This document shows, one piece after another, positions 24,737-30,498 of a DNA stretch of 64,000 bases (the stretch's first letter is position 1; each line of letters starts with the position of its first letter). The notes under the pieces were generated by a model. The model saw only the letters and a program-made list of their open reading frames with translations. It ran no database searches and was not told where the DNA came from. Both the position numbers and the translations under genes were made by a program. The DNA comes from Escherichia coli (GTDB taxonomy: Bacteria; Pseudomonadota; Gammaproteobacteria; Enterobacterales; Enterobacteriaceae): assembly GCF_003334305.1 (NCBI RefSeq), contig NZ_QOWS01000001.1, one strand, 5' to 3'.

Positions 24737-24775
24737 CAGTGCTCTGGTAGCTGTAAAGCCAGGGGCGGTAGCTTG
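24737..24775 (+). promoter_or_regulatory. JUMPstart element with ops site (RfaH-dependent antitermination signal)
   Basis: Sequence CAGTGCTCTGGTAGCTGTAAAGCCAGGGGCGGTAGCTTG read directly; contains GGCGGTAGC ops core; sits just upstream of the AT-rich cluster. Confidence 0.85.
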
Positions 24776-24785
24776 GTAAAAAATC

Positions 24786-25631
24786 ATGATAAATGTAAGA
24801 AAAATAGCAAAATTAATTATTGGCGATAATTTGTATTGGAAGTTGAAGTTTTTTTATGCCACTAAAAAATGGCCTAATATTTATGATCCAACTTTTTTTA
24901 ATGAAAAAGTTCGCTGGCGAATGCTGCACGACCAAAATTATCTTTATGTTAAATGCGCTGATAAGTATGAGGTCAGGAACTATATTGAGAAAAAAATTGG
25001 CAGTGAATATTTAGTTCCGCTTCGTTATATGTTTACTAATAATGATGATATTACTGATAAATGTATTCTGAGTAATAGTGTAGCAAAGTCTAACCATGGT
25101 GCAGGTATGATAGAGTTCATTCCTGAGACGTATTCATTAAGCGAGTTGAAGAATACTTTTGGAAAATGGCTAAATCTTGACTATACCTCCGAGTCCAATG
25201 AAAAACATTATAGTAGGATTCCGAGAAAAATTCTTATTGAAGAGTCTTTGTGTAAGGAGGGAAAACCTCCTGTCGATTATAAATTTCATACATTTAAACA
25301 AGCAGATGGTTCATTTCGTTTTGTTCTTCAGTTGGTAAATGGTCGGTTTCATAATGAATCAAGAGGTTATTATCTGGAGGATCTTAATAAATGCATATGG
25401 TCTCATGGTGAAGGTTTTCATTCTATTCCACAAGAGCATATAAAACCTTTAAAAAAGGCTATGGAATTGTCATCAATTCTATGTGAAGATTTTAATTACG
25501 TACGAGTTGATTGGTATATCTATGATAATAAGCTTTATTTTGGTGAATTAACCTTTACACCTGGTGCTGGAAGTTCATATGAATTTGGTAATGAGCTTGA
25601 AAAATTAATGGCCAAATATTGGCAGTTGTAA
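24786..25631 (+). CDS. TupA-like ATP-grasp family protein (putative polysaccharide amidoligase)
   Basis: 281 aa; family-typical motifs FNEKVRW, DKYEVRNYI..IGSEYLVPL, DYKFH, VRVDWY....KLYFGELTFTPGAGS; AT-rich. Confidence 0.7.
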   Translation: MINVRKIAKLIIGDNLYWKLKFFYATKKWPNIYDPTFFNEKVRWRMLHDQNYLYVKCADKYEVRNYIEKKIGSEYLVPLRYMFTNNDDITDKCILSNSVAKSNHGAGMIEFIPETYSLSELKNTFGKWLNLDYTSESNEKHYSRIPRKILIEESLCKEGKPPVDYKFHTFKQADGSFRFVLQLVNGRFHNESRGYYLEDLNKCIWSHGEGFHSIPQEHIKPLKKAMELSSILCEDFNYVRVDWYIYDNKLYFGELTFTPGAGSSYEFGNELEKLMAKYWQL

Positions 25632-25632
25632 A

Positions 25633-27841: not shown

Positions 27842-28977
27842 AAACAAATAACAAAAAAATAAAAGCATTTATTTTTTTTATATCAATATTTCTCTACTTT
27901 TTCAAAAGTGTTTTTATTTCATTAGAGCTTCCTGAGGATTTAATAGGGGGAGTATCAAATATCATAAATGCACTAATATTGGCTATATTATCTCCAGTCA
28001 TTCTACTGTCAAATAAAAAACAATGTGCATTTATAATTTTTTTAATTATATTGTTTGTTTATAATGCCATTTTTTATAATAACATCTATATGTTTGGTTT
28101 TATAATTATCGCATGCATGTTGATACTAAGTAACGGAATATATTGGAGGGATATTATCAGATACTTGTCACTGGCCCATTTTTTGGTGATTCTTTTTATC
28201 ATTCCTTTAGTTTTTTTTGCAGAAAAATACTCTTTTATTGATGATAGATTTGGAGTTAGATATACATTTGGCTTCCATAATCCGAATACATTTAGTCAAT
28301 ATTTAATTTCTTTATATGTAGTGTTCTTGTTGTTATTTGTTGAAGTTATCAAAAAAAAATCTCTGCAATTTTTGACTGTTATAATATTGACTCTATTTAT
28401 ATATGGGGTGATATCCTTAACTGGTTCAAGGACGGGAATGATATTAACTATTATTACCGGCTTCGGTTTTTTAGCATGTACACTGTCTAAAACGAATGAT
28501 AAAAAAAGAAGAAAGTTTGTATATTTATACATACTAGGTGCAGGAATATTATGTTTTATACAATATTATCTTGCCTTAACATATAATCATTCAGAGTTCT
28601 CAAAAAACATAAATACAATTCTTTCTGGTAGAATATGGTTTTCTTCACAATTAACTAGCCAATTATGGCCTGTCCCATATTTCCATGGTGTGAATATTAA
28701 TGATTATTTGCCAATTGATTTCTTCTACGTGGCTTATTTTTACAATCTTGGGATTTTTATTGGTTCTTGGTTTATATACCTCTTTATAAGAAAAATGTTT
28801 GTGCAAACATATACTCCTGTTATGGTAATTGCGCTTTGGTTATCGCTTGCAATAACGGTCACTGAAAATTATTATGCAATTCCGTTGTATAATATTAGTT
28901 TATTTATTGTTTTTTCCTCAAGATATGTGATTAATGAAAATGAAAACAGCTGTACTTATCCAAGCTCACAAAAATGA
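27838..28977 (+). CDS. wzy: Wzy-type O-antigen/K-antigen polymerase
   Basis: 379 aa very hydrophobic multi-TM protein without transporter motifs, in an O-antigen-type cluster. Confidence 0.7.
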   Translation: MKTNNKKIKAFIFFISIFLYFFKSVFISLELPEDLIGGVSNIINALILAILSPVILLSNKKQCAFIIFLIILFVYNAIFYNNIYMFGFIIIACMLILSNGIYWRDIIRYLSLAHFLVILFIIPLVFFAEKYSFIDDRFGVRYTFGFHNPNTFSQYLISLYVVFLLLFVEVIKKKSLQFLTVIILTLFIYGVISLTGSRTGMILTIITGFGFLACTLSKTNDKKRRKFVYLYILGAGILCFIQYYLALTYNHSEFSKNINTILSGRIWFSSQLTSQLWPVPYFHGVNINDYLPIDFFYVAYFYNLGIFIGSWFIYLFIRKMFVQTYTPVMVIALWLSLAITVTENYYAIPLYNISLFIVFSSRYVINENENSCTYPSSQK

Positions 28978-29767
28978 AAATTATATTAGAGAATTGGCGT
29001 TAAACAATCCATCAGTTCGTTTTTATGTACATATGGATGCCAAGTATCCAAATAAAATCCAATGGATTAAAAATGAATGTATTGATAACATCTATTTAAT
29101 TGAAAATCCAGTTTCGGTTTACTGGGGGGGAAGTAGTCAGATTTTTGCAACTCTATTATTGATGAAGAAGGCATACAGTGATAAGAGAAATAAGTTTTTT
29201 CATCTCGTAAGTTCAGAATGCGTTCCATTAAAGTCATTTGTTGAAATTGAAAACGAATGGAGCATGAATGAAAACTGTCAATTTATTGAGTCGCATAGAG
29301 ATAAAAATAATGAGTGGAGACTAAAGGTTCGGGTCCCTCACTCAAATACGAAGTATCTTAGGACTTTTTTAGGACGATGTGCCAATAAACTCTTTAAAGT
29401 AACTACTTTTTTATGGGATAGTGTAGGTTTAAATCCCGAAAACTATTTTTTTGGTTCCCAATGGTTTTCGGTAACTAGAAATTTTGTTGAGCAAGTAATA
29501 GATGAAGATAATGAAGATTTTTTTAAAACATTCCATAATATAACTTGTGCAGATGAGCATGCTTTTGCTATTTTTGCACGAACAAAATATTCTAACCCGA
29601 ATGATATTCAAGATAACAATAAAAGATTCATTAAGTTTTTAGGTAAGTCAAGTCCAGAATATTTAAGTTTAGATCAAGTGGGGCAGATTAAGAATCTTAA
29701 CTCGTATTGGTTTTGCAGGAAGGTGAGATGTAATGATTTATTAAAAATAATAAGGCAGGAGAAGTGA
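28934..29767 (+). CDS. GT14-family (core-2/I-branching-like) glycosyltransferase
   Basis: 277 aa; family-like motifs TAVLIQAHKN, SVYWGGSSQIFATLLL, GSQWFSVTR, DEHAF; alternative ATG at 28940. Confidence 0.65.
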   Translation: MKMKTAVLIQAHKNENYIRELALNNPSVRFYVHMDAKYPNKIQWIKNECIDNIYLIENPVSVYWGGSSQIFATLLLMKKAYSDKRNKFFHLVSSECVPLKSFVEIENEWSMNENCQFIESHRDKNNEWRLKVRVPHSNTKYLRTFLGRCANKLFKVTTFLWDSVGLNPENYFFGSQWFSVTRNFVEQVIDEDNEDFFKTFHNITCADEHAFAIFARTKYSNPNDIQDNNKRFIKFLGKSSPEYLSLDQVGQIKNLNSYWFCRKVRCNDLLKIIRQEK

Positions 29768-30498
29768 TTATGCTTTTTTCTATCATTATGCCGGCATATA
29801 ATTCACAGGCAACAATAAAAGAAAGTATAGCATCCGTGCTTAATCAGACATATCAAAATTTTGAATTAATTATAATTAATGATAATTCAAGTGACGCAAC
29901 TTTATCGATAATAACAAATTTCTGTCATGATAGAAGGATTCTTGTATTAAATAATGAGGAAAATATGGGAGTGGCACACTCTCGTAACAGAGGATTGGAA
30001 ATGGCATCTGGAGAAATAATTGCCTTTCTGGATAGTGACGATATATGGTACCCCAATAAATTGGAAGAGCAATATAATTGTTTTCTTTCTGGTCACAAAA
30101 TTGTCTGCTCTTATTATGATGTAATTGACTCTGAAGGGGATATTGTTGGAACAAGAAATGCACCTACACTCGTTACATTTGAAAAAATGCTTAAAAGTAA
30201 TTTTATAGGTAACTTGACTGGTGCATATGCCTCCTCTTTTTTTGGAAAATGTTATCAGAGAAATATTGGGCATGAGGATTATATTATGTGGTTGGAATTG
30301 GTAAAAAAACAACCTGCTTATTGCATTAAAAATAAACTAGCCGCATACCGAATTTCAAATAAATCTCTTTCTTCTAATAAAATGAAAGTGGTAATTTGGC
30401 AATGGAAAATATATCGTAAAGTATTAGGTATGAATATTATCAAGTCTTTATATTACTTCTTGAATTATATATATTTTGCGATAAAAAAAAGAAACTAA
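29764..30498 (+). CDS. Glycosyltransferase family 2
   Basis: 244 aa; FSIIMPAYNS....INDNSSD and DSDD motifs. Confidence 0.8.
   Translation: MIMLFSIIMPAYNSQATIKESIASVLNQTYQNFELIIINDNSSDATLSIITNFCHDRRILVLNNEENMGVAHSRNRGLEMASGEIIAFLDSDDIWYPNKLEEQYNCFLSGHKIVCSYYDVIDSEGDIVGTRNAPTLVTFEKMLKSNFIGNLTGAYASSFFGKCYQRNIGHEDYIMWLELVKKQPAYCIKNKLAAYRISNKSLSSNKMKVVIWQWKIYRKVLGMNIIKSLYYFLNYIYFAIKKRN

Follow-up and report, generated by a model that had tools for sequence, protein, structure and literature searches.

The K40 antigen of Escherichia coli is built from the trisaccharide unit beta-GlcA-(1->4)-alpha-GlcNAc-(1->6)-alpha-GlcNAc, with L-serine amide-linked to the GlcA residue. Amor and Whitfield reportedly described, in 1997, the his region of O8:K40 as containing a six-gene Wzx/Wzy cluster together with the O8 rfb locus downstream. 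Some antigens of group 4 K type have a counterpart among the O antigens, examples being K9 of O9:K9 and the O104 antigen. A K40 reference genome has become available (strain SSI 81986, GCA_977946775, 4,542,529 bp; PMC13348134). To go by the title of the structural paper, for which a 2016 corrigendum is listed, the O46 and O134 antigens both contain D-glucuronoyl-D-allothreonine (Perepelov et al., 2015, Carbohydr Res 409:20, cited in PMC7685785). O46 and O134 form a pair with near-identical gene clusters yet without serological cross-reaction (DebRoy et al., 2016, PMC4732683); hence, genes outside the cassette must shape the final antigen. The main text of Iguchi et al. (2015) mentions neither O46, O134 nor K40.

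The window analyzed here is a stretch of 64,000 nucleotides of E. coli DNA (features in Table 1), in which we examined the region between galF and gnd. This region is very probably an O46/O134-type cassette, and the same chromosome has a complete O8 mannan locus lying between wzzB and hisIE. The cassette, its outline chemistry and the two-locus arrangement have all been described before. The interval 24786-30498 is filled by six co-directional ORFs (from the ORF list of the window), the successive spacings being 1, 1, -4, -44 and 2 bases, and its GC content of 29.7% compares with 49.1% for the whole window and approximately 53% for the colanic-acid flank. The gene order is TupA-like ATP-grasp amidoligase, Wzx, GT2, Wzy, GT14 and GT2, an inventory already proposed in the preliminary description and borne out by profile matches and RefSeq names. 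Within the six-gene cassette, neither a nucleotide-sugar synthesis gene nor a racemase or epimerase able to supply D-allothreonine was found, in keeping with the earlier account of an AT-rich cluster devoid of sugar-nucleotide genes.

Table 1. Features of the galF-his region, with positions in the window
Feature	Coordinates	Strand	Basis
gnu, Und-PP-GlcNAc 4-epimerase, upstream of galF	22347..23342	+	Translation identical to WP_000999466.1
galF, conserved upstream flank of the O-antigen site	23585..24478	+	RefSeq annotation, identical region
JUMPstart element, RfaH-dependent antitermination leader	24737..24772	+	ops motif GGCGGTAGC at 24764-24772
TupA-like ATP-grasp amidoligase (ORF1), 281 aa	24786..25631	+	PF14305; RefSeq 'ATP-grasp fold amidoligase family protein'
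wzx, O46/O134-family O-unit flippase, 433 aa	25633..26934	+	RefSeq name of identical WP_001447393.1; PF01943
GT2 glycosyltransferase (ORF3), 301 aa	26936..27841	+	NCBIfam GT2-type matches; PF00535 on identical gene
wzy, O46/O134-family O-antigen polymerase (ORF4), 379 aa	27838..28977	+	RefSeq name; 11 hydrophobic segments
GT14 (Core-2/I-branching) glycosyltransferase (ORF5), 277 aa	28934..29767	+	PF02485, E = 9e-26; RefSeq 'beta-1,6-N-acetylglucosaminyltransferase'
GT2 glycosyltransferase, TuaG-like (ORF6), 242 aa	29770..30498	+	NCBIfam TuaG, 196 bits (cut-off 400)
gnd, conserved downstream flank	30617..32023	+	RefSeq annotation
ugd, UDP-glucose 6-dehydrogenase, UDP-GlcA source	32272..33438	+	NCBIfam NF011631, 827 bits (cut-off 757)
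wzzB, chain-length regulator for Wzy-dependent polymer	33584..34561	+	NCBIfam NF012015, 595 bits (cut-off 267)
Second ops motif, preceding the O8 locus	35613..35621	+	Motif scan
Complete O8 ABC-transporter mannan locus	35702..47782	+	ORFs of matching size

The pathway genes wzx, wzy and wzz are all present, while the initiating enzyme WecA is encoded outside the window. Wzx displays at least eight hydrophobic segments. Profile matches of Wzy were weak (TIGR04370, 24 bits against a cut-off of 40; Wzy_C, E = 0.02), and the matches of ORF3 to the NCBIfam models TuaG, WcaA and PglI were, in every case, under the equivalog cut-off. An alternative GTG start for ORF6 lies at position 29764; the exact 242-aa product is contained in public collections. 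At the 5' end, position 24737, from which the preliminary description had begun the cluster, coincides with the start of the conserved JUMPstart element, and the ops motif GGCGGTAGC occurs only twice in the window, once per polysaccharide locus. Genomes that match the region at all number 2,188, and in approximately 2,170 of these the match is confined to query bases 1-55. The expectation that precursors would come from neighboring genes held for ugd downstream, which scores above its curated cut-off, but not for the upstream gene taken to be gne, which is gnu and does not encode a UDP-GlcNAc 4-epimerase. The same Gnu protein is annotated in STEC005 and NCTC9966, and, according to a review, a gnu gene preceding galF marks units that begin with GalNAc (PMC7685785).

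Assignment of the cassette to the O46/O134 type is based on sequence identity and genomic context. Over its 5,762 bases, the region is 100% identical to several complete E. coli genomes, in which RefSeq names both wzx and wzy as 'O46/O134 family', and each of the six proteins has an exact match in public collections. A database comparison, proposed earlier as the means of identifying the cluster, yielded the O46/O134 cassette at 100% identity. Among 5,426 complete genomes the cassette was detected in 17, with 16 copies showing 97.5-100% identity at 100% coverage and the 17th showing 96.0% identity and disrupted genes. The content and order of genes between galF and gnd are the same in genomes annotated as O46/O134, including NCTC9966 and FDAARGOS_1372; in these two genomes the cassette is the only O-antigen locus and wzzB runs directly into hisIE. 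The six genes of the window differ from those of NCTC9966 by 10 nucleotides and six amino acids. The near-identity to NCTC9966 is confined to about 24.6-30.5 kb, which points to exchange of the cassette through galF and gnd; the recombination boundary was placed at gnd since similarity to other strains breaks down there. A proposal that the S206 allele of ORF1 alters amino-acid specificity was rejected, the allele being a single substitution relative to the NCTC9966 copy. Both alleles carry accessions of the UniProt A0A0A8J series, which stems from the survey of O-antigen reference clusters.

The order of loci in the window is colanic acid, galF, six-gene Wzx/Wzy cluster, gnd, ugd, wzz, O8 rfb locus and his, which is the two-locus layout described for O8:K40. 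The O8 locus, situated between wzzB and hisIE, comprises manC, manB (rfbK), wzm, wzt, a wbdD-type methyltransferase gene, wbdA (1213 aa), a GT4 gene (wbdB) and wbdC. Across wzm-wbdC (38519-47782) the window matches O8 loci, that of IAI1 among them, at 100% identity, and RefSeq names the wzm and wzt genes 'O8 family'; genomes with an O8 locus numbered 302 in all. Since a complete O8 locus is present, the strain would type as O8 by the usual rule. The cassette and the O8 locus occur together in eight of the 5,426 complete genomes as well as in many draft assemblies; the exact ORF1 variant was found in 967 index blocks, and all 24 contigs inspected contained the O8-junction ORF. Dual-locus strains include A7 and DETEC-E601. 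All compared segments of A7 match the window at 100% identity, and the gfcABCDE-etp-etk genes of A7, seven in total, are intact and free of pseudogene flags, the gfcA-cspH spacer measuring 441 bp.

ORF1 is a member of the TupA-like ATP-grasp superfamily, as judged from its profile match and predicted structure. It aligns with PF14305 (TupA-like ATP-grasp) over model positions 1-237 of 241 (E = 1e-31), and its AlphaFold model (pLDDT 92.3) retrieved D-Ala-D-Ala/D-Ala-D-X ligases and PurK as the top 50 fold matches, with a probability of 1.00. The solved Ddl and PurK structures share 10-18% sequence identity with ORF1 and gave TM-scores of approximately 0.45-0.48, and a sequence search of ORF1 against solved structures gave no match. 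Lys, Arg, Asp and Glu residues are invariant across 26 ORF1 homologs. A paralog with 35% identity adjoins wzx in a second E. coli O-antigen cluster, with ugd and a gene for an NAD-dependent epimerase nearby. A broadly similar ATP-dependent amidoligase domain is responsible for the amidation of GlcA in the capsule of Campylobacter jejuni. ORF1 resembles the PF14305 family and D-Ala-D-Ala ligase in its full-length Pfam match and shared fold, whereas substrate specificity is unreadable from the fold; we propose that the enzyme joins an amino acid to GlcA at its C6 carboxyl group.

What this analysis determined is the identity of the sequence, the families of the genes, their genomic context and the ATP-grasp fold; in the working scheme that follows, the order of assembly steps and the substrate of the amidoligase are the parts we infer. 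An RfaH/ops-dependent transcript would start at the JUMPstart element (24737-24772). WecA, encoded elsewhere, would prime undecaprenyl phosphate with GlcNAc-1-P, and Gnu may turn the primed GlcNAc into GalNAc. The GT2, GT14 and GT2 enzymes, all from inverting families, would then add one sugar each, giving a tetrasaccharide unit that includes GlcA drawn from Ugd-derived UDP-GlcA. The ATP-grasp enzyme would activate the C6 carboxylate of this GlcA as an acyl phosphate and couple it to an amino acid at the amino group; this amino acid would presumably be D-allothreonine, which Perepelov et al. (2015) name in their title for the identical cluster. The amino-acid-amidated uronic acid anticipated in the preliminary description would therefore be of the right kind, D-glucuronoyl-D-allothreonine being the constituent given in that title for O46 and O134, but with allothreonine in place of the serine then suggested. 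The unit would be flipped by Wzx and polymerized by Wzy, with WzzB setting the chain length, and the product would be LPS-linked (K-LPS) and possibly also capsular via GfcABCDE-Etp-Etk. Were the O8 mannan made in the same cell by the ABC-transporter route, a co-expression that we likewise propose, the O46/O134-type polymer would act as a group 4 K antigen.

It had been suggested earlier that the cluster is related to that of K40, and several features favor its being the K40 locus of O8:K40 or a close allele that makes a serine-amidated GlcA/GlcNAc trisaccharide: the same chromosomal position, six genes, a GC content of approximately 30%, an O8 locus downstream and an amide-forming enzyme. The architecture indeed agrees, with six ORFs of a Wzx/Wzy cluster between galF and gnd and the O8 rfb locus between wzz and his. 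However, a different six-gene cluster (EC45-type) was found at the same site in 67 genomes, and at least 58 of these have the O8 locus as well. It encodes Wzy, Wzx, a 496-aa protein of unknown function, a GT4 enzyme, PssD and PssE; its wzx is named 'O8 family', and PssD/PssE resemble the beta-1,4-glucuronosyltransferase WelK. Its products exactly match the UniProt entries O30626 ('Putative O-antigen polymerase'), O30628 ('Uncharacterized protein') and O30629 ('Putative GlcNAc transferase') and also entries named 'N/C terminus subunit of GlcA transferase'. We take the consecutive O30626/O30628/O30629 series to be the 1997 K40 deposit, judging by how the entries are named and how old the accessions are, although 'K40' appears in none of the source labels. 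The EC45-type cluster fits K40 because GT4 and PssD/PssE suit the K40 trisaccharide and the UniProt names fit the K40 sugars, and on this sequence evidence it is almost certainly the K40 cluster. Its six proteins show no resemblance to the six of the window (BLASTP, all E >= 1), which tells against any relatedness of the window cluster to K40, and the DNA common to both is the 55-base JUMPstart region only. Its candidate for amide formation is not an ATP-grasp protein, and a sequence search of the 496-aa protein against solved structures gave no match. Moreover, none of the transferases in the window (GT2, GT14, GT2) is from a retaining family, while the K40 trisaccharide needs one beta-GlcA linkage and at least one transferase-made alpha-GlcNAc linkage, and three inverting-family transferases are one too many for a trisaccharide. 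We consider the probability that the window holds the K40 locus to be close to negligible.

The remaining alternatives accept the O46/O134-type assignment and differ as to what is expressed, as one of the two loci in dual-locus strains could be silent. That the cassette makes the only expressed polymer, the strain typing as O46 or O134 with a silent or defective O8 locus, has nothing direct in its favor, although in silico typers would report both loci; it is very improbable given that the cassette is not the sole O-antigen locus, the O8 ORFs at 35702-47782 are all intact, wzm-wbdC is 100% identical to that of IAI1 and other ordinary O8 strains, the O8 locus has its own ops leader and one carrier genome is labeled O8:H21 by its submitter. 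The converse, a cassette that is cryptic in an O8 background, a passenger of recombination giving no surface polymer, is conceivable insofar as identical cassettes move between backgrounds and a recent arrival need not have been selected for expression. Against this, the six genes are free of frameshifts, the JUMPstart/ops leader is kept, wzzB and ugd are intact and the arrangement is widespread, as seen from the index blocks containing the exact ORF1 variant. Cassette genes are disrupted in SCU-485, an O8-free carrier, so decay is visible when it happens, and we regard a cryptic cassette as improbable.

An O46/O134-type cassette beside a complete O8 locus does not overturn current understanding. 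Sequence-based serotypers can report O8 and O46/O134 together for strains with two complete O-type loci, and the O46/O134-type polymer may be the surface polymer that counts for phage and antibody recognition. We tentatively raise the possibility, which we hold to be somewhat unlikely, that in this widespread O8 lineage the polymer is a classical O8-associated K antigen with unassigned genetics, of a serotype chemically equal to O46/O134, much as K9 and O104 correspond, and made by means of a TupA-like ATP-grasp amidoligase and a D-amino acid that no gene of the cassette would supply. No K serotype linked to the O46/O134 cassette was found in the literature reached.

Besides the ATP-grasp ligases, three known systems provide the closest comparisons. 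(i) The cluster of O46/O134 agrees in all six genes and in their order between galF and gnd, with 97.6-100% identity to RefSeq-annotated genomes; the difference is that the cassette in the window shares its chromosome with a complete O8 locus, while the O8-free carriers examined do not. (ii) The relation to K9 and O104 is one of principle, in that a single Wzx/Wzy cassette provides the O antigen of some strains but the K antigen of O8 or O9 strains, whose O antigen is a mannan. (iii) The his region of O8:K40 is alike in the order colanic acid, galF, six-gene low-GC Wzx/Wzy cluster, gnd, ugd, wzz, O8 rfb and his, in an amino acid amide-linked to GlcA and in the expected behavior as a group 4 K antigen (K-LPS), but its gene content is unrelated and L-serine takes the place of the D-allothreonine of O46/O134. 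At this site in O8 strains, each of two unrelated cassettes would attach an amino acid to GlcA, the enzymes apparently belonging to different families.

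Judged by its sequence, the AT-rich cluster between galF and gnd is an O-antigen cassette that has already been described and annotated, since it is identical to clusters of the O46/O134 type for which both gene content and product have been reported. Several complete E. coli chromosomes match all 5,762 bases of it at 100% identity, and exact matches for all six of its proteins were found on hundreds of contigs. Seventeen complete genomes carry the cassette; RefSeq names the wzx gene product as an "O46/O134 family O-antigen flippase" in every one of them, and wzy as a polymerase of the same family in 16. 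O46 and O134 form a serogroup pair with clusters that are 98–99.9% identical and yet do not cross-react (DebRoy et al., PMC4732683). In the account relayed by Liu et al. (PMC7685785), the O46/O134 product reportedly bears an amino acid, D-allothreonine, amide-linked to GlcA (Perepelov et al.); as far as that account goes, the amino-acid-substituted uronic acid predicted in the preliminary description was right. Members of the 90%-identity protein cluster of the ORF3 GT2 are also known from Escherichia fergusonii genomes; the cassette or a close relative is therefore not confined to E. coli.

The six ORFs are co-directional and tightly packed, with spacings from ORF1 to ORF6 of 1, 1, −4, −44 and 2 bases. 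Mean GC content of the cassette is 29.7% (range 27–31% in the region), compared with 49.1% for the whole window and approximately 53% for the colanic-acid genes upstream. Sugar-nucleotide genes are absent from the cassette. The description of an AT-rich, six-gene cluster devoid of such genes was thus borne out, and the families that had been proposed from sequence inspection (ATP-grasp, Wzx, Wzy, GT2, GT14 and GT2) agree with the profile matches and the RefSeq name of wzy. The start coordinate chosen for the cluster in that description is exactly where the JUMPstart element begins, and this element contains the ops motif GGCGGTAGC.

Features of the cassette, its flanks and related clusters in other strains
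Feature	Position	Direction	Assignment or evidence
JUMPstart element	begins at 24737		
ops motif of JUMPstart	24764		
ORF1, TupA-like ATP-grasp	24786-25631	co-directional with the other five	PF14305, E = 1e-31
ORF2, Wzx-type flippase	25633-26934	co-directional	PF01943
ORF3, GT2 transferase	26936-27841	co-directional	
ORF4, wzy membrane protein	27838-28977	co-directional	RefSeq name; 11 hydrophobic segments; weak Wzy profile matches
ORF5, GT14	28934-29767	co-directional	Core-2/I-branching domain
ORF6, GT2 transferase	29770-30498	co-directional	
wzzB-manC junction	34562-35701		94-aa hypothetical ORF
Second ops motif	35613		ends the junction
ORF1 paralogue, strain 94EC (NZ_CP047576.1)	L007:8298-9161		35% identical to ORF1; directly before a flippase gene
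Third six-gene cluster, strain 673 (NZ_CP141196.1)	L004:314-6486		galF-gnd site of O8 strains
ORF3 of the EC45-type cluster, strain EC45	L005:2638-4128		496 aa, soluble

Upstream of the cassette the order is colanic-acid genes, gnu and galF. The gene that had been called gne is present; its label, however, needs correction because the product is identical to WP_000999466.1, the RefSeq Und-PP-GlcNAc 4-epimerase (Gnu). Downstream of the cassette come gnd and then ugd and wzzB, both of which exceed curated cut-offs, followed by an AT-rich, mostly non-coding junction in which RefSeq annotates a pseudogene remnant. Every O8-locus strain examined has this junction, which resembles a scar left when the O8 locus was inserted. 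The stretch from there to hisIE is occupied by a complete O8 mannan locus of the ABC-transporter type, in which manC, manB, wzm and wzt are followed by genes for a methyltransferase, a transferase of 1213 aa and a GT4, and finally by wbdC, and of which the wzm-wbdC part shares 100% identity with ordinary O8 loci such as that of IAI1. The two-locus architecture attributed to O8:K40 strains, with one cluster at galF-gnd and the O8 locus between wzzB and hisIE, is present here.

Strains A7, DETEC-E601 and STEC005 carry both loci, which occur together in 8 of 5,426 complete genomes; the remaining nine of the 17 complete cassette carriers lack the combined arrangement, and in the two of these that were examined, NCTC9966 and FDAARGOS_1372, wzzB directly adjoins hisIE and the O8 locus is absent. 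Over the six genes the window and NCTC9966 differ by only 10 nucleotides and six amino acids. The near-identical block extends from approximately 24.6 to 30.5 kb, with galF and gnd 2–5% divergent; hence recombination has exchanged the cassette between chromosomes that carry the O8 locus and others that lack it. In STEC005 identity with the window is confined to approximately 22.5–30.5 kb, from gnu through the cassette, with 2–5% difference on either side, and the alignments indicate that NCTC9966 and STEC005 are cases of different recombination end-points around the same cassette. Between his and sbcB, over 16 kb, identity to the window is 99.9% or higher in seven of the eight dual-locus genomes, which therefore represent one lineage or one shared block. 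Among draft assemblies the dual-locus arrangement is common, given that the exact ORF1 variant of the window is listed in 967 index blocks and was accompanied by the O8-junction ORF on all 24 contigs read. ORF1 occurs as three near-identical alleles, each tracking its genomic context: that of the window (S206; 583 contigs, O8-linked in 24 of the 24 read), that of NCTC9966 (Y206; 66 contigs) and that of FDAARGOS_1372 (826 contigs). In the O8-free strain SCU-485 (H17, NZ_CP053245.1) the cassette is present at 96% identity with the ATP-grasp and hypothetical-protein annotations split, which suggests a frameshifted, decaying copy.

The predicted structure of ORF1 (pLDDT 92.3, pTM 0.89) gave as its best solved-structure matches only ATP-grasp carboxylate-amine ligases, mainly D-Ala-D-Ala ligases and also PurK, and Lys, Arg, Asp and Glu residues were invariant across 26 homologues. 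Homologues from Kluyvera, Vibrio, Providencia, Xanthomonas, Pantoea and Erwinia carry no functional name in any source. The ORF1 paralogue of 94EC belongs to a second type of O-antigen cluster, present in 10 E. coli genomes, with rmlBDAC upstream. This cluster probably directs synthesis of a further antigen with an amino-acid-amidated uronic acid, because a TupA-like gene precedes its flippase gene and ugd and an NAD-dependent epimerase gene lie downstream. For the cassette itself, on the simplest reading, ORF1 would convert the GlcA carboxylate to an acyl phosphate and then join it to the amino acid, with UDP-GlcA supplied by Ugd; the remaining assembly would fall to WecA, possibly with Gnu acting next, and to the three transferases, Wzx, Wzy and WzzB. 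In an O8 cell the product would be classed as a group 4 K antigen, and since the gfcABCDE-etp-etk operon is intact in strain A7, a capsular form of the polymer is possible. No gene for a racemase or epimerase that could provide D-allothreonine is present in the cassette.

Different six-gene Wzx/Wzy clusters occupy the same site in other O8 strains. One of these, in strain 673, encodes three transferases, a hypothetical protein and Wzy-like and Wzx-like proteins; similarity to the cassette is limited to its GT2, at 32–35% identity to the cassette GT2 proteins. Another, the EC45-type cluster (WzyE-like polymerase, wzx, a 496-aa protein, GT4, PssD and PssE, in that order; EC45, NZ_CP059125.1), was found in 67 genomes, at least 58 of which also have the O8 locus. 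Its wzx is the "O8 family O-antigen flippase" of RefSeq, and its PssD and PssE halves also match the model of the beta-1,4-glucuronosyltransferase WelK. Exact sequence matches in UniProt were O30626 ("Putative O-antigen polymerase"), O30628 ("Uncharacterized protein") and O30629 ("Putative GlcNAc transferase"), together with the "N terminus subunit of GlcA transferase" and the "C terminus subunit of GlcA transferase". An old, consecutive series bearing GlcNAc and GlcA transferase names is presumably what the 1997 six-ORF K40 deposit would look like. In the K40 cluster the polymerase is encoded by orf1, and addition of the serine requires orf3. Although no source label reads "K40", the EC45-type cluster is very probably that of K40. 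ORF3 of this cluster had no match in Pfam, NCBIfam or solved structures when searched by sequence; its SAGFDS motif is similar to the PP-loop found in adenylating enzymes of the asparagine-synthetase type.

The likening of the cassette to the K40 locus accordingly failed as an identification. Its proteins showed no resemblance to those of the EC45-type cluster (every BLASTP E ≥ 1), the DNA shared by EC45-type strains with the cassette query is limited to the first 55 bases, in the JUMPstart region, and its transferases are unsuited to the K40 unit; we therefore rejected the cassette as a K40 locus. That unit is beta-GlcA-(1->4)-alpha-GlcNAc-(1->6)-alpha-GlcNAc with serine on GlcA, which fits the retaining GT4 and split glucuronosyltransferase of the EC45-type cluster, whereas it does not fit the three inverting-family transferases of the cassette. 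If the EC45-type ORF3 adds serine, the amides of K40 and O46/O134 would be alike while being formed by enzymes of different superfamilies.
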